A stretch of DNA of 61,745 bases, from contig JBGSPE010000006.1 of the NCBI GenBank assembly GCA_041738755.1, positions 1 through 61,745 of the forward strand, in the 5' to 3' direction. This DNA comes from Minisyncoccia bacterium (lineage in GTDB: Bacteria; Patescibacteriota; Minisyncoccia; Phycocordibacterales; UBA918). The notes beneath the pieces are model-generated. The model searched no databases. It was not told the DNA's origin and saw nothing but the letters and a program-made list of their open reading frames with translations. Positions 12,521-61,745 of this stretch are shown here, one piece after another; the stretch's first letter is position 1, and every line of letters begins with the position of its first letter. A program made the translations under genes and the position numbers.

Positions 12521-14023
12521 TTCAGTCAGTGGATGTGGTCCAGTCAAACCTTCAATTCGTTTATAGGCATTTTGGGCTGAGATAACACAGATAGGCATCC
12601 CGATACCGGGGTTGGTGTACGAACCAACAAAGTACAGGTCCTTCACTTTTTTAGATATATTATTTGGTCGCCAGAGGGCTGACTGTCCCAGAGTGTGAGC
12701 GAGACCAAGAGCGGTTCCTTGGTAGCTATTGTAGTCTTGCTTGAAATCAGCTACAGAGTAGGTTCGTTTGAATACAATCAATTCCCGAAGTCCGCTCATG
12801 CCCATGTTTTTTTCGAGGATAGCAATCGTTCTGTCGCTCCATTTATCGAGTGTCGCTTGGTCGTAGGTGATGCCAGCTGAGATGGGGACTAGCACAAACA
12901 AGTTTTCATTCCCTGCGGGAGCTACCTTTGGATCAGTCTTGCTCGGAGCACAGACATAAATCGACGGGTCGGTAGGGAAGTCATGATAATCAAAAATCTC
13001 CTTGAAGTTTTTGTCCCAGTCAGGTGAAAAGAGAAGATTATGGTGCGAAAGACTCGGAAGGGTTTTGTTGACACCCAGGTACATAATGAACGCACTGGGA
13101 GCGAGTTTCCGATTTTTCCAATACTGTTCACTATGATCACGCAATTCGACCGGAAGGAGTTTGGTCTCAGTATGATGAAGGTCAGCGTTTGATATCACGA
13201 CATCGGCGTGAATGGTTTCACCCGACTCAAGGGTGATTCCAACCGCCTTTTTATCTTTGGTAACGATAGAAGCAACTGGGGCATCAAAGTGAAATTCAGC
13301 TCCGTATTTTTTAGCTACCTCGGCAATTGCCAAAGGCAGTTTACCAATCCCTCCGTCTGGGTACCAAATACCAAGATCAAAGTCGACATGGTTCATCAGT
13401 CGGTACATACCGGGGGCGTCTTTTGGTGCGGTACCAAGTAACACCATCTGGAACATCATGACTTTTTTAAGTAACTCTGATTTGAAGGTTCGACTAATAA
13501 TCTGCTCCATGTTGCGGTAAATCTCTAGTTTACGACCTTCTCGCATCACTCGCTTATTGAAGAAGTCGAAGAGTGAATTGTAGTTTTTATAAATAAACTC
13601 ATGCTTAGCGATTTGATATTGCCGTTTACTTTCATCAAGGTAGGTGACAAGTTTTTCACCAGACCCTGGTTCAATTGCATTAAAAATCTCTTGGTTCTTT
13701 TCTCGGTCAGCAAAGAAATCCTGGTAACTCCCATCGCTTGAAAGGAATACTCGGTATGATGGGGCAAGTTTTTTTAAGGAAAGATAGTCGTTGATGTCTT
13801 CGCCAAGGAGGGTAAAGAATTCCTCAAATACGTCCGGCATCATGTACCATGATGGACCTAAGTCAAACGCAAATCCTTCATGTTCAATAATCCGAGCCCG
13901 ACCGCCGAGCGTACTATTTTTTTCATAGACAGACACCGCATACCCTTTTTTGGCAAGCATAGCGGCGAGAGACAGACCACCGATACCGGCTCCGATAATG
14001 ATGGCAGTTTTTTTATTTGACAT
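12515..14023 (-). CDS. crtI: Phytoene desaturase
   Basis: FAD fingerprint IIGAGIGGLSLAAMLAKKGYAVSVYEKNSTLGGRA. 502 aa. Sits next to crtB. Confidence 0.9.
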   Translation of the reverse strand: MSNKKTAIIIGAGIGGLSLAAMLAKKGYAVSVYEKNSTLGGRARIIEHEGFAFDLGPSWYMMPDVFEEFFTLLGEDINDYLSLKKLAPSYRVFLSSDGSYQDFFADREKNQEIFNAIEPGSGEKLVTYLDESKRQYQIAKHEFIYKNYNSLFDFFNKRVMREGRKLEIYRNMEQIISRTFKSELLKKVMMFQMVLLGTAPKDAPGMYRLMNHVDFDLGIWYPDGGIGKLPLAIAEVAKKYGAEFHFDAPVASIVTKDKKAVGITLESGETIHADVVISNADLHHTETKLLPVELRDHSEQYWKNRKLAPSAFIMYLGVNKTLPSLSHHNLLFSPDWDKNFKEIFDYHDFPTDPSIYVCAPSKTDPKVAPAGNENLFVLVPISAGITYDQATLDKWSDRTIAILEKNMGMSGLRELIVFKRTYSVADFKQDYNSYQGTALGLAHTLGQSALWRPNNISKKVKDLYFVGSYTNPGIGMPICVISAQNAYKRIEGLTGPHPLTEL

Positions 14024-18270: not shown

Positions 18271-19134
18271 TGTGAGATATTGTGAAAACGTCGTTTCGAA
18301 TTTTCCTTCCGGGACGACTTTTTCTATAGAGAGCTGACCATCTGCGGTTATTGAGGCAGACAGAACCTTTACGCGTTTCCCTTGGTAGAAAAAGTACGTT
18401 CCAGGATTTCCGGCAAGGGCATTGATTTTGTATAACAAGGCAGTGGCCTCAGTGCCATAGGGAAGTTCAGGTGGGTTTATGGATAATTCCCCATCTGTTT
18501 TGGTGATTTTTTTGGTGTAGGTGGCAGCTTCATGTTCTTGCTCTCGTGGTGTAATAGAGCCGGCAAGCCATTTTGGAATAGTCTGTGCTAATAAGGTAGC
18601 ACCGGTGTCAGCCAGAGCCATATCGAGCTCAGGACCAGTGATGGGCCAGATGGCTGGCTGGTACGGCTCTTGAGCTAAGATTGGTCCATGGTCCATTTTT
18701 TCATCCATAAGCATGATGGTAAGGCCAATGTCTTCTGGTTTATTTTCGAGAATTGCGGTGCGAATTGGGCTCGCTCCACGAAGTTTCGGAAGGAGGGAAG
18801 GGTGGACATTAATAACACCATGTTTAGGGAGCGCCAGAAACCAAGCTGGCAGTATGAAGTTATACGCCACCACGACAAATAAGTCCCAGGCTTGGTCTGT
18901 AAGTTCCGGAAACTCAACTTGGTCCCGGAACGAAGTTGGCTGTCTGACTGCAATTGAGTGTTGCAGCGCGAGGGTTTTAATCGCTGGCGCCTGGAGTTGT
19001 TGGCCTCTGCCTTTCGGACGGTCAGGATTACAAAATACTAGTGTCGGCGTAAGACCGGCAGCAATTAATGCTTGTAGGGCGGGGAGCCCGAGGGGCTCCC
19101 CGCCAAAGAACGCAATTCTTGGTGATTCATTCAT
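18256..19134 (-). CDS. fmt: Methionyl-tRNA formyltransferase
   Basis: RIAFFGGEPLGLPALQAL, HPSLLPKLRGASPI. I chose the start at 19134 (MNESPRIAFFG) to avoid overlapping def. Confidence 0.9.
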   Translation of the reverse strand: MNESPRIAFFGGEPLGLPALQALIAAGLTPTLVFCNPDRPKGRGQQLQAPAIKTLALQHSIAVRQPTSFRDQVEFPELTDQAWDLFVVVAYNFILPAWFLALPKHGVINVHPSLLPKLRGASPIRTAILENKPEDIGLTIMLMDEKMDHGPILAQEPYQPAIWPITGPELDMALADTGATLLAQTIPKWLAGSITPREQEHEAATYTKKITKTDGELSINPPELPYGTEATALLYKINALAGNPGTYFFYQGKRVKVLSASITADGQLSIEKVVPEGKFETTFSQYLTLLSQ

Positions 19135-22645: not shown

Positions 22646-24145
22646 CTAAAACTCGTCAAGGTAGCTAATAGAGGCACCGAGAGTTGTGAGACGTTCGACG
22701 AGTTTCTCGTAGCCGCGGTTGATGCTATAGATATTGCGAAGAATCGATTTACCTTCAGCCCCTAACATGGCAATGAGGAGAATGGTTGCGGGACGCAGCG
22801 CCGGTGGGCACACGAGCTCAGTAGCTCGGAGTTTGCTAGGGCCGGTGATGTAGATGCGGTGCGGGTCGGCCAGGGCAGTGTCACCACCAAGCTTATCAAG
22901 TTCGGTAAAGTAAATGGCTCGTTTTTCGTACATCCAATCATGGATAAGGGTCTGTCCGGTAGCTTGGGTACAGATGACGGCGAAGAAGGGAAGATTATCA
23001 GCATTAATACCGGGGTAGGGGCGAGAGTGGATTTTGTCAGTAGCAGCCCGGAGCTTTGAAGGTTTCGTCGTAATATCTACGAGATTCACCTGACCGTTCT
23101 TCCCGAGGTACGGTTTGCTCTGTGTATATTTAAAACCCATTTTTTTGAGTGTTAGAAGTTCAAGTTCAAGAAATTCAATCGGGCAACGAGTGATGGTAAG
23201 GGTGGAGTTTGTAACAATCGCCGCGGCGAGGAAAAACATTGAGTCGGTCGGATCTTCAGCCAACGAATATTCAATATCTTGTTTTATCTTAGAAAGACCA
23301 GTCACGGTGAGGGTAGTGGTCCCGATACCTTCAATGGTGACACCAAGAGCTTGCAGGAATACGCATAGTTCTTGCACCATGTAGTTGGCGGAACAGTATT
23401 TGATAGTCGTGGTACCAGTTTTTAAAGCGGCGGCCATAAGGGCATTTTCAGTGACCGTATCACCAGACTCATAGAGAATGATCTCGCTTGGTTGCTTATG
23501 AACGACTGAGACATTGTATGCGTCCTCGGTGACTTTAATGGAGACGCCAAATTCTTCCAGCGCATAGAAGTGCGGGCGGACAGTTCGGCTCCCGAGTTTG
23601 CACCCACCTGATTGGGGGAGGGCAAAGCCACTCATGCGATGCATGAGTGGCCCGATGAACATAACAATACTGCGAGTCCGTTTGGCAGCCTCGATGTCAA
23701 TTTTTGAGAGATCTATCTTCACGGGTGGAGTAATTCGGACTGCATTTTTCACCCACTCGACTTTAACCCCGATGCTACGGAGTACTTCAATCAGACGATG
23801 GACTTCTTCGATGCGCGGCATGCCGTGTAGGGTGGTGGTGCCCTGATTTAAGAGGGAAGCACACAAGAGACCAACGGCCCCATTTTTTGAAGTATTGGTT
23901 TGAATCGTTCCCGAGAGTTTTTTGCCCCCTGTAACTCCCACACTCACGGTACCGGGTGAAAGGGTGATGAGGTTTTTCCCAAGCGCCTTTCCAATTCGCT
24001 TAAGCATATCCGCACTCACGTTTTGGCGACCGCTTTCCATGCGGGCGATGGCACTTTGGGTGGTTTTAAGTTTTTTAGCTAAGTCAGTTTGGGTGAGTCC
24101 AACAGTTTCGCGCATGTCGGCAATGCGGGTACCAATATCTTGCAT
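22646..24145 (-). CDS. murA: UDP-N-acetylglucosamine 1-carboxyvinyltransferase (MurA) fused to an N-terminal XRE-type HTH domain
   Basis: HTH GLTQTDLAKKLKTTQSAIARMESGRQN, followed by an EPSP-synthase-fold MurA body with the active-site Cys context PQSGGCKLGSRTV. Confidence 0.86.
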   Translation of the reverse strand: MQDIGTRIADMRETVGLTQTDLAKKLKTTQSAIARMESGRQNVSADMLKRIGKALGKNLITLSPGTVSVGVTGGKKLSGTIQTNTSKNGAVGLLCASLLNQGTTTLHGMPRIEEVHRLIEVLRSIGVKVEWVKNAVRITPPVKIDLSKIDIEAAKRTRSIVMFIGPLMHRMSGFALPQSGGCKLGSRTVRPHFYALEEFGVSIKVTEDAYNVSVVHKQPSEIILYESGDTVTENALMAAALKTGTTTIKYCSANYMVQELCVFLQALGVTIEGIGTTTLTVTGLSKIKQDIEYSLAEDPTDSMFFLAAAIVTNSTLTITRCPIEFLELELLTLKKMGFKYTQSKPYLGKNGQVNLVDITTKPSKLRAATDKIHSRPYPGINADNLPFFAVICTQATGQTLIHDWMYEKRAIYFTELDKLGGDTALADPHRIYITGPSKLRATELVCPPALRPATILLIAMLGAEGKSILRNIYSINRGYEKLVERLTTLGASISYLDEF

Positions 24146-24250
24146 ATGACTTGAGTATAGCAAGTATGCTATGATAGGCAGGTAGCTATAAACATTGACA
24201 ATTATACAATTTTATGCATTAATTATAACATTGATATAGGAGTTCTTTTT

Positions 24251-48979: not shown

Positions 48980-49333
48980 ATGGACATTAAAGCTATTGCA
49001 GAACGTGTCGTTGAGCTAAATAAAATTGGCGACCATGAGACAATTTATGCAGAACTCTACAGTGACGATATTGTGAGTATAGAAAACTGGGGCGAGCGGC
49101 AAGTCTATCAGGGAATGGCCGAGCTCAAAAAGAAAAGTGAACAATGGGGTGAGAATCTGGTTGAGATGCATGATACAAGGACCAGCGAACCGTTGATTGC
49201 AGATAAGAGCTTTGCTATTACCTTTTATATCGACGCGACTATGAAAGAAGGTGGGCGAAGCGCAATGACAGAGCTGGCGGTTTATCGAGTCAATGATGAG
49301 GGAAAAATTTATCACGAAGAGTTCTTTGGATAA
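48980..49333 (+). CDS. SnoaL-like / NTF2-fold family protein
   Basis: Size and alpha+beta pattern typical of NTF2-like proteins. Weak assignment. Confidence 0.45.
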   Translation: MDIKAIAERVVELNKIGDHETIYAELYSDDIVSIENWGERQVYQGMAELKKKSEQWGENLVEMHDTRTSEPLIADKSFAITFYIDATMKEGGRSAMTELAVYRVNDEGKIYHEEFFG

Positions 49334-51098: not shown

Positions 51099-52136
51099 AT
51101 GAAAGTACCATATGTATCGCTTTCAGTAGCATCAGCTCTCATCATCGCAGGCTTTTCTAGCTTGCTGCAAGCTCGACCTGAGGTCGGGACTCAAAGTATT
51201 GTAAACAAGCAACCTTCAATTGTGTTTGATCAAGCAACCGGCGAATACTTCACTACACTCAGTGTTTTGACCTACAATATTGCTGGCTTACCCTGGCCAG
51301 TTAAACAGGATAGGGAAGCTGCACTAACTGACATAAAAGAAGTGTTGCAAGCTATGCAATACGCTGGGACTGCACCCGATATTGTCTTAGTTCAAGAGGC
51401 GTTCACCGAACAAGGCTTCGACATTGGGCGAGAAGCCGGGTATTCATATATTGCAAAAGGTCCATTGGCTGATACTGATGCAGAATCACTTTCAGGGTCA
51501 GAGTACCAGGACTTCCTTGATGAACGCACTTATGAAAAAGGGGAGTTATCTGGGAAGATGGTCGGAAGTGGATTAGTTGCCTTCAGTAATTATCCAATTA
51601 TTGAACAGACAGCCAAGCCATTTCGAGACAGTGCCTGTGGTGGGTATGATTGTTTGGCAAATAAAGGTATGTTGCTGGTGCGTGTAGCAGTGCCTGGTGT
51701 ACCACTACCGCTCGATATTCTTACTACCCACCTTAATTCACGTGGTGCTTCAGGAGTCTCAGCTGAACGTTCTTTGTTCGCTCATAAACTTCAGGTAGAT
51801 GACCTGGTAGGCTTTATCAAGGAGAATCAAAATCCACGTTATCCGTTTTTGATGGCTGGTGATTTCAATTTCCGAGGGGGTAATGAGCGTCTTCAGTATC
51901 TTACGTCAAAACTCACCTACACGTTCACCCGTGAATACTGCGAAGGAGTCAGCCAGTGTCAGGCTGATACCATTCCGTGGGAGAATCATCAAGATCATCA
52001 AACCTTTGCGGATACCCCGATAGTTCGTATCGTTCCGATAGCTGCAGAGGAAGTGTTTGATACACCAGTTAAGGGTCGGGTACTCTCTGATCACAACGGC
52101 TACCTAGTTGTGTATCGAATATCTTGGCGAAAATAA
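51099..52136 (+). CDS. Secreted endonuclease/exonuclease/phosphatase (EEP) family enzyme, sphingomyelinase/phospholipase C-like
   Basis: Signal peptide. Motifs LTYNIAGLPWP, VLVQEAF, THLNS, AGDFNF and LSDHNGY. Confidence 0.78.
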   Translation: MKVPYVSLSVASALIIAGFSSLLQARPEVGTQSIVNKQPSIVFDQATGEYFTTLSVLTYNIAGLPWPVKQDREAALTDIKEVLQAMQYAGTAPDIVLVQEAFTEQGFDIGREAGYSYIAKGPLADTDAESLSGSEYQDFLDERTYEKGELSGKMVGSGLVAFSNYPIIEQTAKPFRDSACGGYDCLANKGMLLVRVAVPGVPLPLDILTTHLNSRGASGVSAERSLFAHKLQVDDLVGFIKENQNPRYPFLMAGDFNFRGGNERLQYLTSKLTYTFTREYCEGVSQCQADTIPWENHQDHQTFADTPIVRIVPIAAEEVFDTPVKGRVLSDHNGYLVVYRISWRK

Positions 52137-52160
52137 GATACGCTCCCAAATCCACTAGTA

Positions 52161-52196
52161 AACCCTGGCCACATCATGGCCGGGGTTTTTGTTTTT
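52161..52196 (+). terminator. Rho-independent terminator
   Basis: AACCCTGGCC-acatcat-GGCCGGGGTT followed by T-runs. Confidence 0.7.
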
Positions 52197-52207
52197 GATA
52201 AATTGCT

Positions 52208-52236
52208 GTGACTCTCTGTAGTACGAATTGGAACCG
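52208..52236 (+). repeat. Cassette-boundary repeat R1: GTGAC-N16-TGGAACC
   Basis: GTGACTCTCTGTAGTACGAATTGGAACCG. Positions 52214-52236 are 23/23 identical to R2 (52544-52566). Confidence 0.8.
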
Positions 52237-52258
52237 TACAGTAATCCAGATTTATGCT

Positions 52259-52480
52259 TTAGAGGTTTTGATATTCCTCTTTTGTGATTACGTCACCTTG
52301 TTCTCCAACGCCATATCCTAAAGTGTTCCCAGTAAGAGCATCGTTGGCCCTACCCATTTCTTCTGTACCACCTTGAATTATAGTCTCAACACCGTTACTT
52401 CGTCTACGAACCTCAGATCTTTCATTATCAAAACAATAACCAATTGATCCTAAGCGTATGTATTTAATTCCCTTTGACAT
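52259..52480 (-). CDS. Hypothetical small protein
   Basis: ORF only; no SD. Confidence 0.35.
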   Translation of the reverse strand: MSKGIKYIRLGSIGYCFDNERSEVRRRSNGVETIIQGGTEEMGRANDALTGNTLGYGVGEQGDVITKEEYQNL

Positions 52481-52537
52481 ACTTCATAGTAACATTTACA
52501 GAAAGGGACTTCCGGAGAAGTACCTCCTATGTCCTCA

Positions 52538-52566
52538 GCGACCCTCTGTAGTACGAATTGGAACCG
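52538..52566 (+). repeat. Cassette-boundary repeat R2
   Basis: GCGACCCTCTGTAGTACGAATTGGAACCG. Confidence 0.8.
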
Positions 52567-52715
52567 GATCTTTGTTTATTTAAAACTGTTGGTTACTAAT
52601 CATTAATAACCATTGTATATTATTAGAATTTCTGATTTACTGGGTATCAGGTATCGTCCGTTGAAAGCTGGTAACATCACATTGCGTGGTGTCAGCAACA
52701 ACGGAGGATAAGTTC

Positions 52716-53462
52716 ATGATTGACATAGATCAATTGGATATACTTCCCACCAAAAGCGCCTTAAGGCGCCGTAAACGTCGGGAAAAACGCGCTTATCACG
52801 AGCTTCGGCTAGCAAACTATCGTCAATCATTTGCTGGCAGGAAGGCCGCCCGCGAGCGCGAACAAGCATCGGTTGCATTTCGTGCACAGGAAGAACGTCG
52901 ATTAGAACTTTTAAGGCGACGCACGCTTGCTATGGCAAGTGCGCTCGCAGTATCAGTTGTCAACTTCGAGGTGGAATTCGGTTCATACCTCACCACTGAC
53001 CTCAATCGTGCTAGGGCATACATGTTGGGGGAGACTCATCGTTGCATGCCATTGCCTCTTGAATTGAGTGTTGCGGTCGGTGACTACAGGCGGGATCTTC
53101 TGGCTCGACGACTACAAATCGAGCCCTTCATTACAGAAATTAATGCACTTACTTCTGTTCAGTATAATGAAGTGCTCGATGCCTTAGTCGGCCATTTTGA
53201 AGAATTGATGGAGGTTTCTGATGGTCTCTACAATTGCTCTGTCTGGCACCCGCTCTGCAAGAATACCAATGACCATGCCCGGTCAAGACGTATTTCTCGG
53301 CGTTCGGCCACACGCAAGTGGCAACGTAATGTTTTGAAAGTATATATCAACATTACCGGTTTATCCGCAGTTGAAGATCTCTTTAGTTACGCGTTGATTC
53401 CACAGCCGCGTTGGCTACGGCAAATAATTGCTCAATCAAAGACTGTTCGTTTGATCGCCTGA
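52716..53462 (+). CDS. Hypothetical Arg-rich protein
   Basis: The ATG at 52716 is preceded by GGAGGA (52703-52708). GC-richer than its neighbours. Confidence 0.5.
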   Translation: MIDIDQLDILPTKSALRRRKRREKRAYHELRLANYRQSFAGRKAAREREQASVAFRAQEERRLELLRRRTLAMASALAVSVVNFEVEFGSYLTTDLNRARAYMLGETHRCMPLPLELSVAVGDYRRDLLARRLQIEPFITEINALTSVQYNEVLDALVGHFEELMEVSDGLYNCSVWHPLCKNTNDHARSRRISRRSATRKWQRNVLKVYINITGLSAVEDLFSYALIPQPRWLRQIIAQSKTVRLIA

Positions 53463-53484
53463 GCCGTTGGAGGCACAGAGGCAG

Positions 53485-53519
53485 AAAGGGGTTGGCTTAG
53501 CCGACCCCTTTTCTTTTTT
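53485..53519 (+). terminator. Rho-independent terminator
   Basis: AAAGGGGTTGGC-tta-GCCGACCCCTTT followed by a T-run. Confidence 0.75.
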
Positions 53520-53527
53520 ACAAGTCT

Positions 53528-53555
53528 GTGAATCTCTGTAGTATGAATCGAAGCC
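53528..53555 (+). repeat. Cassette-boundary repeat R3 (diverged)
   Basis: GTGAATCTCTGTAGTATGAATCGAAGCC. Same register as R1 and R2, with a few substitutions. Confidence 0.65.
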
Positions 53556-53629
53556 AGATTGTAAATTTTATATAAAAAGCCCCCACATCATACAAGTGTG
53601 AGGGCTCGGAACTTATAGGTTAATCGCAA

Positions 53630-53785
53630 TTATCCTGGAGTTGCTTGAATTCTGTCTGCAATTGTGCGCAAAACTTCAGGGCGACTATCACCAAACCTTT
53701 TCTCTGCTTGCAGTTCATCGGCAAGCTCACGAAGAACTTTAACTTCCTCTTCTTTTGTTACAGGATGTGCTGCCAAGTTTCTCAT
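53630..53785 (-). CDS. Small 51-aa hypothetical protein (too short for the ORF track)
   Basis: GGAG lies 7 nt upstream of the ATG. Translation MRNLAAHPVTKEEEVKVLRELADELQAEKRFGDSRPEVLRTIADRIQATPG. Confidence 0.3.
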   Translation of the reverse strand: MRNLAAHPVTKEEEVKVLRELADELQAEKRFGDSRPEVLRTIADRIQATPG

Positions 53786-54024
53786 GTTCGATCTCCAGAA
53801 ATAGCACCAAAACTAGTACTAAAGATATATTAAATAAATTTTGTTTTAAGTCAATTTAGACGTTAATTTAAGAATACTTTATGTATTAACATCCGTATCA
53901 TGTGTTTGACCCTACAAGCAGGGGATTTCAGCAAGTTCCAGAAAATTAGTGTGACTTTACAATAGGAAAAAAATATATATAGTCACGTCAGAAAAGCATA
54001 TAAATTGGCAAAAAGGAAAATCAG

Positions 54025-54405
54025 ATGCCTTTAACTGAAGAAGAAATTGCCACAAAGTGTGTCTCACAAGAAAGACTTTTTGAGATTTTGAAAGCCGAAG
54101 GAGTAACAATAACCAAATGCAGCGTTAGCAAAAACTCAGTTGGAGAATTCTTGTTTATTCGTGCAAAATGGGAGCACAATCCTGAATTTTATATGCTTTG
54201 TACTGGGTGTGGAGATTATCACATAGGACCCTATCCCGGACTAAGTTTTTTCGGTATGGGATTTGATGAAAATGAGAACGTCTTTTTCGAGAGCGAGTGG
54301 CGTTTCCATGGCGCAACTCTGCCAGTAATTGATACCGGCATGTCTGTACCATTTGAAGAGGTCGTCCAAGAGATCGAGAAGAGAAGACCAATTTTACAGT
54401 CATGA
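54025..54405 (+). CDS. Hypothetical protein
   Basis: 126-aa ORF followed by a 12-bp-stem hairpin. Confidence 0.5.
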   Translation: MPLTEEEIATKCVSQERLFEILKAEGVTITKCSVSKNSVGEFLFIRAKWEHNPEFYMLCTGCGDYHIGPYPGLSFFGMGFDENENVFFESEWRFHGATLPVIDTGMSVPFEEVVQEIEKRRPILQS

Positions 54406-54410
54406 TCCTC

Positions 54411-54450
54411 GAAGCCAGCGAACGTTTCGCTGGCTTCATTTATATATTTT
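54411..54450 (+). terminator. Rho-independent terminator
   Basis: GAAGCCAGCGAA-cgt-TTCGCTGGCTTC followed by an AT/T-rich tail. Confidence 0.65.
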
Positions 54451-54454
54451 ACGC

Positions 54455-54482
54455 GTGACCCAAATGGGACAAAGTTGGAACC
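54455..54482 (+). repeat. Possible cassette-boundary repeat R4: the ends are conserved (GTGAC-N16-TGGAACC) but the middle differs
   Basis: GTGACCCAAATGGGACAAAGTTGGAACC. Same 16-nt spacing as R1. Confidence 0.4.
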
Positions 54483-54534
54483 AGTTGGTGAAGGAAATGA
54501 AAATGTGGGAAGAATTTGGGAGATTAACAGAAAA

Positions 54535-54873
54535 TTAAATCTGGTCTAAATCTTTTAGAATCATCTCTTCAGATTCATGAGTCTTCCACAATTCAATGTA
54601 TGAAAGGTCGTCTTTAGATAAGTGTTTACCCCCACCAAGTCCTATTAAAGATTTAGCCATTGTCCACCTTGCATAGTATTGTTCACCGCAATTTTCTATT
54701 GAAAAACGTATTACTTCAGAGACTAAATCTGGTCGTTTTTGTAGTAATTTATTTAACTCAGTCGAACAATAAATCATCTGAATTGGCATTGGCGTCATTG
54801 TTACGCCAATGCCTGAAGCCATTAATTTTAGATGGTCTAGTTTCTGTTCTATATCCAAATCAGTTTCACTCAT
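54535..54873 (-). CDS. Hypothetical protein
   Basis: 112-aa ORF; no motifs. Confidence 0.5.
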   Translation of the reverse strand: MSETDLDIEQKLDHLKLMASGIGVTMTPMPIQMIYCSTELNKLLQKRPDLVSEVIRFSIENCGEQYYARWTMAKSLIGLGGGKHLSKDDLSYIELWKTHESEEMILKDLDQI

Positions 54874-54951
54874 GGGATAAGCATAACAAAAGTTCCAAGT
54901 ATTTCCTTAGGTGTTAAAAAATTCCCATGTAAATTAACATCAAATGTCGCT

Positions 54952-54974
54952 GTGAGCCTAATCGTGATGGAACC
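54952..54974 (+). repeat. Weak cassette-boundary-like repeat R5 (GTGAG-N11-TGGAACC)
   Basis: GTGAGCCTAATCGTGATGGAACC. The spacing differs. Confidence 0.25.
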
Positions 54975-55046
54975 AAAGAAATTCATTGCCCAGTAAGGCT
55001 TTCGTAGCTATTCATTACAAAACACCCTCGACGCTTCTCGAGAGAG

Positions 55047-55406
55047 TTATTTATGCTCTGGACAGCCACCTTTTGTATATTCCTCATACTGAGCATAAGA
55101 CATCGACGCCGCTCCTTGGATGTGTTGTTCAATCAAAGCTAGGTCTTTGGGGTCAAGTTTAAGTTTGTTTGATTTTTCGTACGGACCCCACTCGTACATT
55201 TTCTCAATCAAATGAGCTATGAAATAGGACTTTTTATTATCGTATTGTTTACTCAATTCGATATTGCATGTGTGGTCGTTATCGTGTGTCAAAACAACAG
55301 CTAATGGTGCATCAGATGGTCCGTCAATAAACACAATAGGGTGCCACGCTTCTTTACGACCTCGTTCTGTACCCCATAAAATGTCTCCTCGCTTAAATTT
55401 TTTCAT
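55047..55406 (-). CDS. Possible PemK/MazF-like (SH3-fold toxin-like) protein
   Basis: N-terminus KRGDILWGTERGRKEAWHPIVFI resembles the RGDI...RP.V signature of PemK/MazF toxins. Weak assignment. Confidence 0.4.
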   Translation of the reverse strand: MKKFKRGDILWGTERGRKEAWHPIVFIDGPSDAPLAVVLTHDNDHTCNIELSKQYDNKKSYFIAHLIEKMYEWGPYEKSNKLKLDPKDLALIEQHIQGAASMSYAQYEEYTKGGCPEHK

Positions 55407-55444
55407 AATTGTATTTTACAAAAAGTGACAAAAGTGACACTTTT

Positions 55445-55924
55445 TTACCCAATTTTGTTATGACTAAAAAAGAGCTTGCCTAGTAGAAATTCAAAAACCA
55501 AAACCATTATGAAAAGTAAAGGTGACCAAAATATCGTTGCCATAGCTATAAAGAAAATAACAAAAGGAAGACCAGATATAACATCTTGATAAAGTCCTAT
55601 GCTTATATAAAACGGAACAAAAGCACTGAGGTTAATCCAAATACCCCAGTTAAGGATGTTGCCTTTTAGTCGGTTAATTACACCCTTAGACGCTTCGATA
55701 TAGATATATATGGAAATATATACCGCTACAATTATTCCCCAAACAAGTATGGTTTTGTCCTCTTGCAGGTTTTCTGTGCCGAGTGCAGATAATATGGTTG
55801 GAGTAAATAAGATAAGACCAATCAGCATTTGAAGACGTCTTTCCATTCTGGAAACATCAACAGAATCCATATAATCATTATGGAGTGATTCGAGCTTCTT
55901 ATATGTTAGTTTAATAAATTTCAT
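55445..55924 (-). CDS. Hypothetical 4-TM membrane protein (operon gene 4)
   Basis: Four hydrophobic segments. Its ATG overlaps the upstream stop (ATGA). Confidence 0.6.
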   Translation of the reverse strand: MKFIKLTYKKLESLHNDYMDSVDVSRMERRLQMLIGLILFTPTILSALGTENLQEDKTILVWGIIVAVYISIYIYIEASKGVINRLKGNILNWGIWINLSAFVPFYISIGLYQDVISGLPFVIFFIAMATIFWSPLLFIMVLVFEFLLGKLFFSHNKIG

Positions 55925-57000
55925 TTCTTTTTGGAGACTAATTTGAGCAAATCCTCCTCACGGTCATAACCATGCAGTCTACCCTCAAGCATTCCTAGTC
56001 TATAAGATACTCCATCCGTAACAAGACGCCAGTTAGTCTCTTTTAGGGCTTTTCTGAGTAAACATTCAAGCTCGTAGGTACTTGCTCGACCTTCTCGGTC
56101 TGACTTCTGCTCATAGACTATAAACGGTAAAAAGACATCTTTGGTTACATCGGGTTCTTTAAACTGGAGTTTGATATAGCCAGCTTTCTCAAGTAGTGGA
56201 ACGAGGTACTCCTCTAGTTCTAGAATCTTTAATTTCTTTAGTTTAGCGACTGCATCATAGAGGTCTTTATTTTTCTCTTTTTCTTTTATCTCATCAAACA
56301 GATGACCCATTCGCATTATTTGTTCAGTTGATCGAATGTACTCCTGTCCATCTTTTTCAGATAGACAGAACTCTTGACGGTCTTTAGCAAAATGTGGGTC
56401 TTCAACTTCTTCTGGTTTAGAACCGAAGTCAAAATCTTCAATGTTCGTGTAATCACAAGACGAACATGTTTGCTCAATAACAATCTTTTCAGTTTCTTTT
56501 TGACGTACCTCCTTTAATTCTGAGTGGCACTTTGGGCAAGTAGGTGTTTTATGTTGAAACTCTTCACCAGTGTTAAAGAACGCCCTGCGAGGGAGGTGGT
56601 CTAGCGGACAATCATAGAAAAAGAGAACGGTATCATCATCGTTCATTCCGATATTTAAATGCTTTGAGCTAACAAACATCAATCTTCCACAAGTGTGACA
56701 AGTAATGTCTTCTGGCGGTTCAGCTTCTTCTAAAAGTCTGTCTCTGGCTTCATCTGACTGGATCCAGCGTTTGATAGTTTCTTCTCGGTGAACGTAACGG
56801 TCGCCTTTGGTGTAGTAGATGTGTAGGTTTTTAGTAACCACCAAAGCACGAATCATTTCTGACTCTTCAATGTCTTTACCCTTAGCTTCTTTTCTATATT
56901 TCTCAATATCGACTTCTTCAGATAATAAACCACGACAGATTTCCACCGTCCGACGGTCATACTGGTCTTCGTAGTACTGTTTAGACTTTAAGTTGCTCAT
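55921..57000 (-). CDS. Hypothetical double zinc-ribbon protein (operon gene 3)
   Basis: CHTC...C...H and CPKC-N21-CSSC. I cannot assign the C-terminal domain. Confidence 0.6.
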   Translation of the reverse strand: MSNLKSKQYYEDQYDRRTVEICRGLLSEEVDIEKYRKEAKGKDIEESEMIRALVVTKNLHIYYTKGDRYVHREETIKRWIQSDEARDRLLEEAEPPEDITCHTCGRLMFVSSKHLNIGMNDDDTVLFFYDCPLDHLPRRAFFNTGEEFQHKTPTCPKCHSELKEVRQKETEKIVIEQTCSSCDYTNIEDFDFGSKPEEVEDPHFAKDRQEFCLSEKDGQEYIRSTEQIMRMGHLFDEIKEKEKNKDLYDAVAKLKKLKILELEEYLVPLLEKAGYIKLQFKEPDVTKDVFLPFIVYEQKSDREGRASTYELECLLRKALKETNWRLVTDGVSYRLGMLEGRLHGYDREEDLLKLVSKKK

Positions 57001-57706
57001 GTTCAGTTTTTCTTACAAACTTCTGACGTCTAATATTCTGTTCGTATCTTGCATACCATGATAGAGCGTAAAGAAAAGGCAGAAGTAATATCGATAGGTA
57101 GATTGGAAGAATGAGCTCATGGATGGTAGAGGTGCTTGCAAGCGATTCAATGTCCTCGACAGCTCTGCTGATACAGAAGATAAAAATTGCAATACCAAAC
57201 ACAATCTGTACACGGTTTAAAAATGTGTACAATATTTTGTATTCGTCTTTTGTACCCGAGAAGAACGTCAGTAGACTTAACGTGATAGCCAATGGAACAA
57301 GAATCAACTCAATCCATAAAGGAAATGTGTAAAAGTTAACAAAGAAAGCAATCAAGATTGTAATATTCAAAACTTCTCTAAAGACTTTAAACAGATATCC
57401 TTTCTCTTGGTGTAGCTTTCCAGAGTTTATGAAGGCAATTATCGACCAGCCGAATACCCAGTATATTGTCGTTTTTGTAAGGCCGGTGTTCCAAATGGAA
57501 AGCTCGTATAGAATTAATAATGTGATAGCGATGTATAGGAAAAGTAGAAAGAAAAATTTTCCTAAAGGCACTATTGATTTTAAGAATGCCCAGATGCTTG
57601 AACGAACATCTTTCTTTGTAAGAATCCATGCTGAAAAAACGGCGACCCAAAAGATGGTCGCCAGCTCTCTCGTTGTAAAAATTGTGTAAAGCAGAGACAC
57701 AGACAT
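56981..57706 (-). CDS. Hypothetical polytopic (about 7 TM) membrane protein (operon gene 2)
   Basis: Seven hydrophobic segments. Starts 5 nt after the gene 1 stop and overlaps gene 3 by 20 nt. Confidence 0.6.
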   Translation of the reverse strand: MSVSLLYTIFTTRELATIFWVAVFSAWILTKKDVRSSIWAFLKSIVPLGKFFFLLFLYIAITLLILYELSIWNTGLTKTTIYWVFGWSIIAFINSGKLHQEKGYLFKVFREVLNITILIAFFVNFYTFPLWIELILVPLAITLSLLTFFSGTKDEYKILYTFLNRVQIVFGIAIFIFCISRAVEDIESLASTSTIHELILPIYLSILLLPFLYALSWYARYEQNIRRQKFVRKTEHEQLKV

Positions 57707-57711
57707 ATCTG

Positions 57712-59190
57712 TTATTTTGCTTTACTAGCGGATTCTTTAGGTCTGCCATCAATCACAATTAATTCAGGATGTTTCGTTTCATCTTTGTCTTCTTGTTCGG
57801 CTTGTTTGATAATGTCGTCTAGTGCCTTAGAAGTATCTGTTACCTGTAAAACTACAAAGAATGCGTGTTGTGCATCCTCCGAGGTTTGGTAAATACCAGT
57901 TTGTCTCTCATAACCTTGTCGAACATTCCCACTTGTGAGTTTTACCTCAACTACAACTTTCGAAGTCCCTCGACTTAGTTTGAAGTCTACAGGTCCCTGT
58001 CCAGCATTGCTTTGTGGGCTAATATCTATATTTGAATCAGCACAGTATTTAAGAGCCATCGCATAGAAAAGAAGACAAGCATGCTCTTCATGCAGTCTAT
58101 TACCTTTACTATCGTATAGGCCACGCCAGCCACCTCGTGTTTCAATAAAACGTTTAAACGCAGAGACGATTGCACTGACAACATCGACAACCTCTGTTTC
58201 AGTAGATACTACCTTTGGAATTGTAAGCGGAATCTCTCTGACAGCTTCAGTCGATTCATCAAGCCATCGCTGTCGCCCTGCGGGGTCATTTTCAAAGTCG
58301 TAATGTTGTGGATGTGCAGATTTGTAGCCACGGAGAAGAACATCGATTCTTTCGGGATTTTCAAAGAGATAGCTTTTAATATCACCCTTAGTAGGTCTTT
58401 TTGTTCTAGCCAAAATCGGTGCAAGGATTCGGTTAAATTTTTCTCGCAACTCATCGTTGTAGGAAGCTACATCGGGAATATCTTCTGGTGTAAGTGCAAT
58501 TGGGATGTCTCGCAAAAGCGATTGAGGTACTAGCACTAGCGGCTTACTGCCAGAAGGGTGTTCTGGTAACAAAAATGTTTGTCGGGTACGGAGTGTTACT
58601 ACTTCTCGAGTACATGGAATTTTCAGTTCGACCGCTACACGTGCTGTGTAAGAATAGATACTGTCTTGGAGGATGTTAATTACTGCGTCACTAATACGGT
58701 CAGGACCAAAATCCTCTTCAAACAGTCCCATCAAATGGAATATTGCTGGGTCATTAAACCCCATTTGTAGTAGCTGTTGGGCAGATGTCACTAGTCGTCC
58801 TGCAAGTTTTTTACCAATAGCTGAACCATCATCGGTGCGAGCTCCATATCCGATTCCAACACCTCTGATTTCTCGAAGTGTCATAAGCCTTCGTGCTCGC
58901 ATTACTCCACGGACATGATTTGTTGCAATTAGAGTAATGACGTCAGCAAAGAATCTATCAAGGGTTGCTTTTGCTTCTGCAAATTCAGGAATTGTTGTTT
59001 CCTCTAAGAGTGTCGGGTCAAGAAAGAACGGTCTGTCGACTCCAATTATGGCGTTGAATGCACCAGTATTATCAAATGTGTCTTGATCAACCTTGAAATA
59101 TTCGTTTATTCGGGAAATCTGTTCGGGGTTCATGTAAATGAAGTATGAACCGATTATAAAAATATTCAAGATATTAGCCAATTTCGACAC
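57712..59190 (-). CDS. Protein with a C-terminal PD-(D/E)xK (RecB/Cas4-like) nuclease domain and an unassigned N-terminal region (operon gene 1)
   Basis: HEEH...GPVDFKL...VVVEVKL...QTGIY gives the E / D / ExK / QxxxY motifs. The GTG start is preceded by AGAGG. Confidence 0.65.
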   Translation of the reverse strand: MSKLANILNIFIIGSYFIYMNPEQISRINEYFKVDQDTFDNTGAFNAIIGVDRPFFLDPTLLEETTIPEFAEAKATLDRFFADVITLIATNHVRGVMRARRLMTLREIRGVGIGYGARTDDGSAIGKKLAGRLVTSAQQLLQMGFNDPAIFHLMGLFEEDFGPDRISDAVINILQDSIYSYTARVAVELKIPCTREVVTLRTRQTFLLPEHPSGSKPLVLVPQSLLRDIPIALTPEDIPDVASYNDELREKFNRILAPILARTKRPTKGDIKSYLFENPERIDVLLRGYKSAHPQHYDFENDPAGRQRWLDESTEAVREIPLTIPKVVSTETEVVDVVSAIVSAFKRFIETRGGWRGLYDSKGNRLHEEHACLLFYAMALKYCADSNIDISPQSNAGQGPVDFKLSRGTSKVVVEVKLTSGNVRQGYERQTGIYQTSEDAQHAFFVVLQVTDTSKALDDIIKQAEQEDKDETKHPELIVIDGRPKESASKAK

Positions 59191-59353
59191 CTAACCTCTC
59201 AATATTCCATATTCTTCCTATCGAAAACGTGTTGAAATCAACGATTTTAAACGATATCCACAGTCGCTTGGCTGAGAATTTTGCCTTATTTCATAAGGTG
59301 TTTTAGTCTGGATATACAAACGAATAACCCGAGTGGGTAACCAGCTTAAATGT

Positions 59354-59400
59354 GGGCTCACGCACAAACCAACCATTGTTGGCGTGCGTGAGCCCTTTTT
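59354..59400 (+). terminator. Strong plus-strand intrinsic terminator / attenuator hairpin
   Basis: GGGCTCACGCAC (59354-59365) pairs with GTGCGTGAGCCC (59384-59395). There is an inner CCAAC/GTTGG stem, then TTTTT. It lies 29 nt upstream of the ATG at 59430. Confidence 0.7.
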
Positions 59401-59429
59401 CGTTTGTTTAATCAAATAAGCAAATAATC

Positions 59430-59711
59430 ATGAAAAACCAAAAGATTAGAGACCATTTCTTTGCACACACACAAGAAGTCATCGAATACTACGCAGACAT
59501 CAAGACTAAGGAGGTTAGTCCTGAAGAGAAAGAAGCTCTAAAGGCACTACTCATCGACCACGCAACCTCATGTCTCTTTTCGCTCCTCGTATACATCGAT
59601 GGCGATGCGGAAGGAAAGAACATCGAAATCGTTAACGTCAAAACTAACAAACCAATTGCCGAGGACATTCTCCACGAATGCTACACAAATTATCTACTCT
59701 CAATTAAATAA
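59430..59711 (+). CDS. Hypothetical protein
   Basis: 93-aa ORF immediately upstream of the ParB-MTase gene. Confidence 0.5.
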   Translation: MKNQKIRDHFFAHTQEVIEYYADIKTKEVSPEEKEALKALLIDHATSCLFSLLVYIDGDAEGKNIEIVNVKTNKPIAEDILHECYTNYLLSIK

Positions 59712-59714
59712 CCT

Positions 59715-60998
59715 ATGAACAACATACAACTCATATGGCACACCGAGTCTCGAAAAGTAGACTCACTCCTGCCACACAAGAAATCACCACGAAAGATTAG
59801 CAAAGAGCAAGCCGAGCGTTTGAAGAAAAGCTTGGAGAACTACGGCTTGGTAGAAATCGCAGCGATAGACCTAGACGGAACAATCCTCGCAGGACACCAA
59901 AGAATGAAAGCTCTCCAACTCATGGGACAAGGAGACACGATGGTGGACGTCCGAGTACCCAACCGCAAACTCACTGATGAAGAAGCAGAGCGATACATGA
60001 TTGGAAGCAACGCCATTCACGGCGAGTGGGACTTTGACCTCCTCAAGGGTTTTGAGATGGATTTGCTCATAGATCTAGGCTTTGACCAGAAAGAGCTAGA
60101 CGACATCTGGAACAAAGAGCTGAAGAAAGAGTTTGATGTTGAGAAGGAACTAAAGGAAATCAAGAAAGCCAAGACCAAACTCGGAGACATCATTCATCTT
60201 GGTGACAACCGACTTATCTGTGGCGACTCCACCAAGGCAGAAACTCTCGAACGACTCTTCGGCGATGAACGTGCGTCTATGATTATGAGTGACCCGATCT
60301 ATAACATTTCCATTGACTACAACAAGGGCATTGGTGGAAAGCAGTCATACGGAGGTATGGTAAACGACAGCAAGACCGACGAGGAATACAAGACCTTCCT
60401 TAAGTCGAGCATGGAAGCCGCCCTCACCGTCACTAAACCCGATGCTCACGTCTTCTACTGGTCAGACGAAACATACATCTGGCTGATTCAAACCTTATAC
60501 CGTGAATTCGGTATCACCAATAAGCGAGTCTGCTTGTGGCTCAAGAACAGCCAGAATCCTGTTCCGAGCGTAGCGTTCAATAAGTGCTATGAGCCGTGTA
60601 CCTATGGTGTCCGTGGTAATCCGCAACTGGTGAAAGGTGTGACGAAGCTGAACGAAGTCCTTAATGCAGATATGACTACAGGTAACGAACTCCTCCAACA
60701 AGTCCACGACCTATTCACGGTCTGGCCTGAACCTCGTTTGTCTTCTAAAGACTACGAACACTCAACGATGAAACCACCAGCGTTATACGAGAAAGCGATA
60801 CGTCGCTGTTCTAAAGCGGGAGACATCATCCTTGATAGCTTCAACGGCTCAGGGAGCAATCTCATCGCTGCTCAAAGACTGGGCCGTCGAGTGTATGTCG
60901 TCGAGATAGAACCAAAGTTCTGTGACCTCACCATTAAACGCTTTGAAGCCGAAACAGGTCTCAAAGCCAAGGTAATAAGAAATGAAAAAGAAGTATAA
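59715..60998 (+). CDS. ParB-like nuclease domain fused to a beta-class N6-adenine/N4-cytosine DNA methyltransferase
   Basis: ParB-N motif DGTILAGHQRMKAL. MTase motif IV SDPIYN. AdoMet motif DSFNGSGSNLIAAQRLGR. Confidence 0.88.
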   Translation: MNNIQLIWHTESRKVDSLLPHKKSPRKISKEQAERLKKSLENYGLVEIAAIDLDGTILAGHQRMKALQLMGQGDTMVDVRVPNRKLTDEEAERYMIGSNAIHGEWDFDLLKGFEMDLLIDLGFDQKELDDIWNKELKKEFDVEKELKEIKKAKTKLGDIIHLGDNRLICGDSTKAETLERLFGDERASMIMSDPIYNISIDYNKGIGGKQSYGGMVNDSKTDEEYKTFLKSSMEAALTVTKPDAHVFYWSDETYIWLIQTLYREFGITNKRVCLWLKNSQNPVPSVAFNKCYEPCTYGVRGNPQLVKGVTKLNEVLNADMTTGNELLQQVHDLFTVWPEPRLSSKDYEHSTMKPPALYEKAIRRCSKAGDIILDSFNGSGSNLIAAQRLGRRVYVVEIEPKFCDLTIKRFEAETGLKAKVIRNEKEV

Positions 60999-61440
60999 AG
61001 AAGACAAATTTCTTGAACAACTGGAACGAGTGCCGAACGTATCGCTCGCTTGCGAAAAGGTCGGGCTTTCTCGAAACACCGTCTACCGATGGTGTATCGA
61101 GGATGCCGACTTTAAAGTGAGAATGGACATGGCACTTGAATCAGGGGTTCATTCCATAAGTGACCTTGCTGAGAGCAAGCTGATTTCCCATATCAATGGT
61201 GGCAACCTGCGAGCAATACAATACTGGCTTGATAACAACAAGAAAAACTACATCAGACCAAGAGACAAGAATATGTGGCAACCGTTTGTACCTGTGACCA
61301 AGATTGAGATTGTGGGGTTTGAGGGATTTACTGCAAAAAAGATAGAGGAGGAAGAACCTCATGTTCCAGAGGAGTTTATGAAGATAGATGAAAAACTTCT
61401 AAACGAACCACTTCCCGAACCGATTGAGAAACTCAAATAA
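60982..61440 (+). CDS. HTH DNA-binding protein, terminase-small-subunit-like (paralogous in architecture to 2955-3338)
   Basis: ACEKVGLSRNTVYRWCIEDADF...YWLDNNKKNY. Confidence 0.6.
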   Translation: MKKKYKEDKFLEQLERVPNVSLACEKVGLSRNTVYRWCIEDADFKVRMDMALESGVHSISDLAESKLISHINGGNLRAIQYWLDNNKKNYIRPRDKNMWQPFVPVTKIEIVGFEGFTAKKIEEEEPHVPEEFMKIDEKLLNEPLPEPIEKLK

Positions 61441-61732
61441 AAATGCGTTGTCCAATCTCTGCGACATCCTCAAGAAATAACTGCTTGTTCTTCTTCATGC
61501 GGTAACTATTGGGATGACCAATTGAAAAGACTTTGCTGTATTCTGGAAACGCTAAACGAAAGAGTGATTCCGTATTCTTTCCAATACAGAATATGGGCGT
61601 TGTGAGGGTAATTCCCAAAATAGCGAACTGCTCTTTAAGATTCTGAATATGCAAACCTCGGAAGCTTTCATCTTTCCACTTTTCAACCACTACCTTGGCA
61701 CTCGGCTCACCAATTGAAATCAGGTCAGTCAT
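61433..61732 (-). CDS. Hypothetical protein (possibly N-terminally incomplete at the window edge)
   Basis: ORF only. Confidence 0.35.
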   Translation of the reverse strand: MTDLISIGEPSAKVVVEKWKDESFRGLHIQNLKEQFAILGITLTTPIFCIGKNTESLFRLAFPEYSKVFSIGHPNSYRMKKNKQLFLEDVAEIGQRIFI

Positions 61733-61745
61733 GTATGCACCAAGA

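Follow-up and report, generated by a model that had tools for sequence, protein, structure and literature searches.

Introduction

Serial integration linked to tRNA genes is already a known way of building genomic islands. In Prochlorococcus, seven tRNAs serve as sites at which tycheposons build islands, and partial tRNAs lie scattered through these (bioRxiv 10.1101/2020.12.28.424599). In Dehalococcoides, islands stand in tandem at ssrA; a 20-bp repeat that matches the end of ssrA delimits them, and beside the repeat lies a conserved motif of 15 bp that has no match to ssrA. Some of the Dehalococcoides units lack integration genes and are read as cis-mobilisable, and the gene of a CcrB-like serine recombinase (DsiB) runs into the attachment (att) site, where it overlaps ssrA. 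Here we describe a locus that invites comparison with these systems, in a poorly known lineage. The DNA analysed, called the window below, is 61,745 nt long (contig JBGSPE010000006.1 of a Minisyncoccia bacterium) and carries between 52.2 and 55.0 kb five copies of a short repeat, R1 to R5, all on the plus strand and spanning 2.8 kb, with small genes between them. We propose that the R elements are probably att junctions left by repeated site-specific integration at a hot spot, the 3' end of tRNA-Glu. Other genomes and contigs are numbered below with the prefix L.

Results

The R elements form a clustered family

The positions and sequences of the five copies proved to be exactly those of the first-pass annotation, a reading of the DNA letters which had described a repeat delimiting single-gene cassettes (Table 1). 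An exact 22-mer, CTCTGTAGTACGAATTGGAACC, is common to R1 and R2 and absent from the rest of the window, the chance expectation being none. The pattern GTGAC-N16-TGGAACC, with at most one mismatch, occurs at three sites against 0.29 expected; the looser GTGA(C/G)-N9-18-TGGAAC(C) has three sites on the plus strand, all of them within the array (0.25 to 0.58 expected), and four of the five TGGAACC words on that strand fall inside R elements. All five copies lie within the 2.8 kb of the array and none elsewhere in the 61.7 kb. By sequence, R1, R2 and R3 are evidently copies of one element of 28 to 32 nt. Homology begins sharply at (GC)TGTGA in all copies compared and stops after GGAACC. In R1, the nine nucleotides that follow GC are similar to the tRNA-Glu 3' end in reverse complement, and the next 20 nt form a conserved arm that is not of tRNA origin; the GAATCGAAG box of R3 is nearer to the T-loop region of a tRNA.

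Of the other two copies, R4 had been listed as keeping only the ends and R5 as weaker. R4 differs from the R1 consensus at 11 of 28 positions, a score that some 14 chance sites in the window equal, and R5 scores below R4; on overall identity alone, which is at chance level, neither would be called a copy of R1. Both nevertheless belong to the R family, because their bipartite motif is clustered with the others and because repeated or mobile DNA in metagenome contigs begins exactly at both start points, where contigs break (see below).

As single-stranded DNA, the R sites fold no better than shuffled sequences (z from -0.65 to +1.7). The site is unstructured and therefore neither attC-like nor REP-like (REP, repetitive extragenic palindromic). 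Its two ends, GTGAC... and ...TGGAACC, have no inverted-repeat relation, so that it is no simple site of the dif, lox or FRT type. ARAGORN and Rfam gave no tRNA gene and no RNA family overlapping the R sites. A CRISPR-like solo repeat, a sigma-54 or extracytoplasmic function (ECF) promoter and a tRNA or tmRNA fragment with a proper T-arm were also considered and rejected, as no consistent sequence match was obtained and ARAGORN and Rfam were blank.

Terminator-like hairpins are indeed present ahead of R1, R3 and R4, and the intervals hold one or two small open reading frames (ORFs) on either strand, with differing GC content (0.34 to 0.46, against 0.457 in the core), as had been described. The units measure 0.33 to 0.99 kb in the window. 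No match to the cargo of the five small units was found in Pfam, NCBIfam, PHROGs or PADLOC. Downstream of R4 lies a remnant of 13 codons (MKMWEEFGRLTEN, MKMWEEFG) of the small ORF, beginning MKGWEEFGMS, which the other copy of R4, described below, carries.

The start of R matches the end of tRNA-Glu

In three relatives, the tRNA-Glu gene ends in ...GTAGGGTCA (...CCGTAGGGTCA), followed by CA. Read on the opposite strand this end is TGTGACCCTACGG..., the first nine bases of which are the start of the R site. In other words, the start of R, TGTGACCCT (9 to 11 nt), is the exact reverse complement of the last bases of tRNA-Glu in related genomes. The next 20 nt or so, CTGTAGTACGAATTGGAACC, are not derived from the tRNA, yet they are identical in distant genomes. 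Four other tRNAs of the same genome gave background scores only against R. Some members of the family resemble the tRNA further inward. By our own count, 15 of 24 positions agree in an ungapped alignment of R5 with the tRNA-Glu 3' end in reverse complement, and R5 has the T-loop box at the tRNA spacing. More tRNA-like subtypes, at 5777 in L002 (TGTGACCCTACAGGAATCGG) and at 2098 in L021 (TGTAATTCTTCGGAGAATCGGTCC), share up to about 20 nt with tRNA-Glu and occur in the same arrays, in the same orientation and behind the same type of left flank; the L021 site follows the terminators of a homologue of the endonuclease/exonuclease/phosphatase (EEP) gene that precedes R1 in the window.

Sites of the family are also found together with tRNA-Glu genes. 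On L004, 740 bp of AT-rich DNA, with a single ORF for a membrane protein, separate an R1-type site (181-209) from a minus-strand tRNA-Glu (952-1024), whose 3' end points toward the site, the orientation that integration at tRNA-Glu predicts. In the source metagenome, a contig of 22,953 bp has the R4 block at 9747-9793 and a tRNA-Glu, identical to that of L004 and in the same relative orientation, some 550 nt on (10340-10416, minus strand); the depth of this contig is 27, that of the window 23. The SnoaL_5 gene, the last one of the window that is syntenic with relatives, is followed in L008 by a minus-strand tRNA-Glu after 3.4 kb, is followed directly in L018 by a plus-strand tRNA-Glu in which the contig ends, and is preceded by a plus-strand tRNA-Glu in L010. 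In the source metagenome, tRNA-Glu is a point at which many contigs break, as would be expected if the sequence downstream of it varies.

Some 100 nt past the intact tRNA-Glu(CUC), L008 has a partial duplicate of the 5' half of this gene (CATAGCCGCTAGACGATAGGGCC, 13905-13965), which suggests that DNA was rearranged here.

The same site in other genomes

A scan of 185,579 species-representative genomes with a degenerate 22-mer gave a single locus in a single metagenome-assembled genome (MAG), L002, and the same scan of JGI metagenomes gave two real matches, L003 and L004, and one chance eukaryotic match, L005. Scans of viral contigs for the R1, R4 and R5 types gave no match. By these scans, the element is not a widespread dispersed repeat. 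L002 is a pond MAG, and its site at 5045-5076, GCTGTGACTCTCTGTAGTACGAATTGGAACC, is identical to R1 at 32 of 32 positions. SnoaL_5 alone among the genes of this locus is shared with the window, and its two proteins are 50% identical; because the site was kept unchanged between genomes whose shared protein is so divergent, the comparison points to selection on what may be a protein-binding site. In L003 and L004, the 29-nt site has wholly different flanks and GC content. A second copy in L002, with three mismatches, lies 1.4 kb upstream, and the pair (3672, 5049) encloses an unrelated ORF of 388 aa. L011 has two members of the family, at 15925 and about 18586, one of which blends R4 and R1 features (GTGACCCAAATTAGTTTGAATTGGAATC) and the other R5 and R1 features (TGTGAGCCTAAGTTGTACGAATTGTAACC), and in L019 an R5-like site stands immediately after the SnoaL_5 terminator.

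Gene content between family members in L002, L004 and L011 differs from that of the window. The cargo of such arrays includes genes for restriction-modification, TIR-like, UvrD-like, AbiLi-like and PDC-M36A-like proteins. To the left of the sites in L002, L011 and L021, a module formed by a terminator and (T)AAGAAAATATGC recurs; it is weaker at R1. The gene for the 248-aa protein of the window, situated between R2 and R3, has homologues in L019 (83% identical) and L020 (50%), both without an adjacent R1-type site, and a fixed cassette of gene plus site is therefore unsupported for the R1 type.

Other repeats were noticed beside these homologues. In L020, which is a high-GC organism, a direct repeat of about 45 nt (..CCAAAACT.CACC.CC.C..GCTTCGGGATAAAAAGAAAA), unrelated to R, follows terminators at about 1432-1482 and 1918-1966, once behind the 248-aa homologue and once behind the next small gene, in a cassette-like pattern. 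In L019, a small hairpin repeat, GCTCCGAAGGCCGGGCCYTCGGAAGAAA (about 285-320 and 1018-1050), stands where a truncated 248-aa homologue and a truncated SnoaL_5 gene join, which suggests a deletion between the two repeat copies. L021 (2098-2241) and L002 (5836-5930 and 6085-6129) have about 100 nt in common, GGAATCGGTCCTTA(A)CAGGACCAGTACACCTTTTGGCT.TTTCAGTTCA..., a stretch with internal hairpins that is closed in L021 by the complementary ends TGTAATTCTTCGGAG and CTCGTAGAATCACG; Rfam gave no match to it, and it could be a structured RNA, a miniature inverted-repeat transposable element (MITE) or nested tRNA-Glu debris. Finally, a 223-aa Y1_Tnp gene (IS200/RAYT-like) lies between 54-nt inverted repeats in L011 (17730-18516) and adjoins an inverted piece resembling the tRNA-Glu end, CGTAGGCTCACA (18521-18532), and the R-family site at 18585. 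A link between this transposase and R was considered and rejected, since the gene has inverted repeats of its own that are unrelated to R.

Repeated or mobile DNA begins at R4 and R5

The source metagenome comprises the hot-spring runs X1 to X4, for which we used Logan assembled contigs. These contigs break or branch at the start points of R4 and R5. The 47-nt block that begins with R4 is present again on the 22,953-bp contig, and at least four alternative left flanks precede the block that begins with R5 (from 54945-54951), whose depth is 4 to 5 times that of its surroundings or of the genome. At both sites the DNA to the right travels with the subtype and the left flank varies. In a wastewater metagenome from another study, 245 nt (54945-55189), covering R5, its module and the start of the 119-aa ORF, are 100% identical behind a different left flank; such identity indicates recent horizontal spread of a unit bounded on its left by an R site. 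The R5 module measures about 122 nt and includes a minus-strand terminator and a promoter-like box. The segment with the 119-aa ORF interrupts it in the window, and elsewhere a single G stands in place of these 373 nt. Alternative right flanks of the module begin after 55440 or 55445, with no target-site duplications visible at its boundaries. The arrangement from R1 to R4 is identical in the four hot-spring samples.

Flanks of the array and other islands of the window

The EEP gene had been taken for the last core gene. It is not conserved in relatives, and that place falls to SnoaL_5. The dcw cluster is truncated and contigs of relatives measure 0.6 to 0.9 Mb, which could tentatively indicate a small-genome lineage resembling Patescibacteria. 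The best EEP homologue is 58% identical and the others 45% or less, the few named matches being proteobacterial; the best one, in L021, is followed by terminators and then by a tRNA-Glu-like att site, and the EEP gene itself was probably acquired.

Table 1. Coordinates of the array, its units and its flanks in the window.
Feature	Position	Strand	Remarks
SnoaL_5 gene	48980-49333	plus	last gene syntenic with relatives (mraZ-rsmH-ftsL-ftsI-murE-x-SnoaL_5)
EEP gene	51099-52136	plus	last core gene of the first-pass annotation
Terminator hairpin ahead of R1	52160-52188	plus	
R1	52205-52236	plus	GCTGTGACTCTCTGTAGTACGAATTGGAACCG, 32 nt; start previously placed at 52208
R1-R2 unit, 73-aa ORF	52259-52480	minus	interval GC 0.389; no family match
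R2	52538-52566	plus	one mismatch to the consensus (GCGAC for GTGAC)
R2-R3 unit, 248-aa ORF	52716-53462	plus	
Terminator hairpin ahead of R3	53484-53512	plus	
R3	53527-53556	plus	diverged copy, 5/28 mismatches
R3-R4 unit	53630-54405		51-aa ORF 53630-53785 minus; 126-aa ORF 54025-54405 plus; interval GC 0.383; no family match
Terminator hairpin ahead of R4	54411-54437	plus	
R4 subtype	54455-54501	plus	GTGACCCAAATGGGACAAAGTTGGAACC + 19 nt, 47-nt block
R4-R5 unit, 112-aa ORF	54535-54873	minus	interval GC 0.342; no family match
R5 subtype	54945-55044	plus	TGTCGC TGTGAGCCTAATCGTGATGGAACC... and conserved arm, including a minus-strand terminator at 55025-55044
119-aa ORF segment, 373 nt	55045-55417	minus	ORF 55047-55406; in the window and the wastewater contig
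R5 module, right part	55418-55445	plus	minus strand: promoter-like GTGTCA-N16-TAAAAT ahead of the 119-aa ORF
Further island DNA	55446-59353	minus	GC 0.391; four minus-strand ORFs; no R site
Phage- or satellite-like element	59354-61745	plus	runs to the window end; left boundary near 59354

One ORF of the further island DNA, of 492 aa (57712-59190, minus strand), has a full-length match to phrog_30194 (2e-82) and a match to PDC-M36A (7e-13), a candidate defence family; Pfam gave no domain for it. The element beyond it encodes a ParB-DNA methyltransferase (phrog_498) and a helix-turn-helix protein resembling a small terminase subunit (phrog_4044; terS-like gene, 60982-61440), and several variants of it occur in the metagenome at 2 to 5 times depth; past the right end of the window, Logan contigs are split up among such variants. 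An alternative left flank starts near its left boundary, just ahead of a long hairpin (GGGCTCACGCAC...GTGCGTGAGCCC). A minority variant, with a depth of 8 in X1 and 5 in X2, has 23 unrelated nt instead of the 309 nt at 59427-59735 that contain a 93-aa ORF (59430-59711). Together with the 373 nt of the R5 module, this is the second case of an exchange about the size of one ORF.

The left end of the window holds an island linked to another tRNA. Positions 1-33 are the 3' part of a plus-strand tRNA, GGTCGTAGGTTCGAATCCTACCCGCGGAGCA (T-arm GTAGG-TTCGAAT-CCTAC, then CCGCGGAGCA), truncated and missed by ARAGORN. A large serine recombinase ORF of 522 aa (20-1588, minus strand) overlaps this tRNA part with its stop end and has Resolvase, Recombinase and Zn_ribbon_recom domains, with weak matches to XisF, CcrB and CcrA. 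This recombinase belongs to an island other than the R array, extending behind the tRNA from 34 to 6170 at low GC (0.36). Within it lie an AbiLi-like AAA_21 ATPase gene (3511-4791) and, between that gene and the recombinase, a full-length LOOT RNA (RF03000, 2502-2623, plus strand; 81 bits, gathering score 46.4). Two sequences, at 5507 (TACCGCGGGAGTAAT, behind a terminator) and at 6174 (AGGCGGAGCACTA), may be partial repeats of the end of this tRNA; they lie near the point where GC climbs to the core level. Further on, an HTH_3 domain at the N-terminus and a complete EPSP-synthase domain are fused, unusually, in one 505-aa ORF (22646-24163, minus strand).

Discussion

We then asked how such an array could have arisen. 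The repeat family, its identity with the tRNA-Glu end, its co-location with tRNA-Glu on other contigs and a variable, horizontally shared content to its right are observed directly, and we consider serial integration at the tRNA-Glu 3' end their probable origin. From these data we infer the direction of growth, the position of the crossover and the nature of the enzyme. The short core TGTGAC(C/T)CT, which corresponds in reverse complement to the final 7 nt of tRNA-Glu and 2 flanking nt, would be the point of exchange. On the side of the element, the 20-nt arm, which is CTGTAGTACGAATTGGAACC in R1-type sites and has related forms in R4 and R5, would serve as a recombinase-binding half-site. Each R would then be an attL-type junction opening the unit to its right, and the DNA to its left would be either the old flank downstream of the tRNA or the tail of the previous unit, which would explain why a terminator so often stands ahead of R and why the module of terminator and (T)AAGAAAATATGC recurs. 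New units presumably enter beside the tRNA and push the older ones away, which would yield the one-stranded order R1, unit, R2, unit, R3, unit, R4, unit, R5 and larger island, with tRNA-Glu expected on the minus strand to the right of the window. The small units, devoid of a recombinase gene, may be decayed remnants or passengers mobilisable in cis or in trans, in the manner of cis-mobilisable elements (CIMEs) or pseudo-SCC elements (SCC, staphylococcal cassette chromosome), and the recombinase would be encoded elsewhere. A large serine recombinase similar to CcrB or DsiB is a candidate enzyme for the R sites because this genome carries one beside a tRNA 3' end, and a tyrosine integrase is no less likely.

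Several points weigh against serial integration at tRNA-Glu. No recombinase domain was found among the ORFs searched from 52.2 to 61.7 kb, in line with the first-pass annotation, which had seen none in the array part. ARAGORN found no tRNA gene in the window, which ends inside island DNA, short of the far end of the array. Identity with the tRNA covers only 9 to 11 nt, and the R1-type arm agrees with tRNA-Glu at 6 of 20 positions by our own count, which is the random level. In the assembled contigs of the four samples, neither alternative junctions nor excision were detected at R1 to R4. In L002, L011 and L021, inverted pieces ending in ...TCACA face TGTGA... across a palindromic terminator, an arrangement that a model of growth in one direction does not explain. 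Moreover, R1 is the copy furthest from the presumed tRNA and hence the oldest, yet it is the best conserved, which decay with age does not predict; its conservation fits a selected and possibly active site better than a fossil.

Because R1 is perfectly conserved though presumed oldest, one must also consider that the R sites are live and that units equipped with promoter and terminator are shuffled as single-gene cassettes at tRNA-Glu by a recombinase acting in trans, with an integron-like logic and a short unstructured site. The units are uniformly small (0.33 to 0.99 kb here, 0.55 and 0.74 kb beside tRNA-Glu elsewhere), hold one or two ORFs and no recombinase, the R1-type site is perfectly kept between distant genomes with both flanks differing, and an unrelated metagenome has the R5 unit in identical form. 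However, the 248-aa gene is found elsewhere without R1-type sites, the assembled contigs of the four samples reveal no presence/absence polymorphism at R1 to R4, no recombinase is linked to the R sites, and the decay of larger islands gives the same picture. We regard active cassettes as unlikely, and the bolder idea that small-genome bacteria exchange single-gene units through a 29-32 nt site mimicking tRNA-Glu, with a trans-acting recombinase that is possibly a CcrB/DsiB-like serine enzyme, as unlikely too. The first-pass annotation had offered an integron-like or otherwise unconventional cassette array and a serial-insertion hot spot as alternatives. The latter agrees with the tRNA-Glu start, the co-location, the content linked to each subtype and the varied cargo in relatives; the former sits badly with a site that has no attC-like structure, ORFs that point both ways, a 248-aa gene found without the R1 site, and an array in which neither an integrase nor an attI-like end is visible.

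The sharp break of homology at TGTGA raises the question of transposition, R being in that case the solo left end of a DDE-type transposon or MITE (TGTG...CACA) whose insertion points lie directly behind terminators. Tn7, Mu and elements of the IS481 type typically end in TGT, and inverted pairs of TGTGA... and ...TCACA do exist in L002 (5777/6129), L021 (2098/2241) and L011 (18532 facing 18585); the R4 arm may also loosely resemble the TnsB sites of Tn7. Such an origin is improbable, since the window has no inverted partner from 50 to 61.7 kb, no target-site duplications were seen, no transposase is present, and the identity and repeated co-location with tRNA-Glu would be left unexplained. 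A host intergenic motif with no role in mobility, be it REP-like, a binding site for a regulatory protein or a promoter element, would account for sites that are short, intergenic and often behind terminators. The first-pass annotation had itself named a dispersed REP-like element as what would overturn its reading. The copies are neither palindromic nor structured, they are clustered on one strand in 2.8 kb of a 61.7-kb window, the scan of the genome collection gave the 22-mer at a single locus, the genes downstream point either way and the flanks vary in gene content; a host motif is thus very improbable. Least credible of all is a chromosomal dif-like Xer site with insertions of the IMEX type (integrative mobile elements exploiting Xer), in spite of a length near 28 nt, the lack of an adjacent recombinase and a cumulative GC skew that flattens near 52-55 kb. 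The arms have no dyad symmetry, at least two other contigs whose depth is similar carry subtypes, and the site is tied to tRNA-Glu instead of being a unique terminus site; to our knowledge, the R site resembles no known dif site.

If R elements indeed mark integration at tRNA-Glu, the signature TGTGAC(C/T)CT + CTGTAGTACGAATTGGAACC and its subtypes would find hot spots of the flexible genome in an uncultured hot-spring and pond lineage that has almost no annotated mobile elements. Its islands of ORFan and defence-like genes would be tied to tRNA-Glu integration as in Dehalococcoides, Staphylococcus and Prochlorococcus. Should the tiny units be independently mobile, they would offer a new route of single-gene exchange; otherwise we are dealing with ordinary, neat island accretion. 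Cassette exchange, if true, would be a functional counterpart of integrons with different chemistry and a different site type.

Comparison with known systems

Integron arrays likewise consist of small, mostly single-gene units between recurring sites, with the recombinase outside the units. However, attC sites are imperfect palindromes of 57 to 141 nt that have R''/L''-L'/R' boxes (GTTRRRY) and fold as single strands, whereas R sites are unstructured and 29 to 32 nt long; here the ORFs lie in both orientations with terminators of their own, and the site derives from a tRNA end. No intI/attI/Pc platform was found beside the array within the window, and no GTTRRRY/RYYYAAC pair in the R sites. 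Nor does the locus have the palindromes and the tens to hundreds of chromosome-wide copies, often in inverted pairs, of REP elements and bacterial interspersed mosaic elements (BIMEs), the two inverted Xer-binding arms that flank a 6-8 bp spacer in dif sites, which measure 28-31 bp and are unique to the terminus of a chromosome, or, in the window, the inverted repeats, duplications and transposase of DDE elements and MITEs.

Closer parallels are found among composite islands. SCC islands with pseudo-SCC elements also form a chain of cassettes at one site delimited by direct repeats, and some of the cassettes have no recombinase genes and depend on Ccr in trans (bioRxiv 10.1101/336396). Unlike R, SCC elements target the 3' end of rlmH (orfX) and not a tRNA, and their cassettes measure kilobases to tens of kilobases. 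Streptococcal CIMEs, in the accretion of integrative and conjugative elements and integrative mobilizable elements (ICE-IME), are units without recombination genes that have att sites and stand in tandem at the 3' end of a tRNA or other gene (PMC5704250); here no conjugation or mobilisation genes were seen and an active partner element was not identified. In tycheposon islands, successive integrations at particular tRNA genes push the older ones inward (bioRxiv 10.1101/2020.12.28.424599), and besides the partial tRNAs degenerated elements are scattered through the islands. Some tycheposons resemble phage-inducible chromosomal islands (PICIs) and carry terS, to be compared with the terS-like gene at the right end of the window. 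Tycheposons differ in being defined by integrase and replication modules, which were not found here, and in lineage and att sequence.

The Dehalococcoides ssrA islands resemble the present locus in having tandem units beside a small RNA gene, a repeat of its 3' end, an extra motif that does not come from the target, units without an integration module and a recombinase ORF that runs into the att site, which here is the case at the left end of the window. The target is tRNA-Glu here and tmRNA there, the repeat derived from it measures 9 to 11 nt against 20, the units of the R array are far smaller (0.3 to 1 kb, one or two ORFs), and no integration module was seen in this array. Some features expected of island accretion are found at this locus, namely direct repeats in one orientation that copy the 3' end of tRNA-Glu, cargo that differs between genomes and units shared horizontally; an intact target gene closes the array on L004 and on the 22,953-bp contig.

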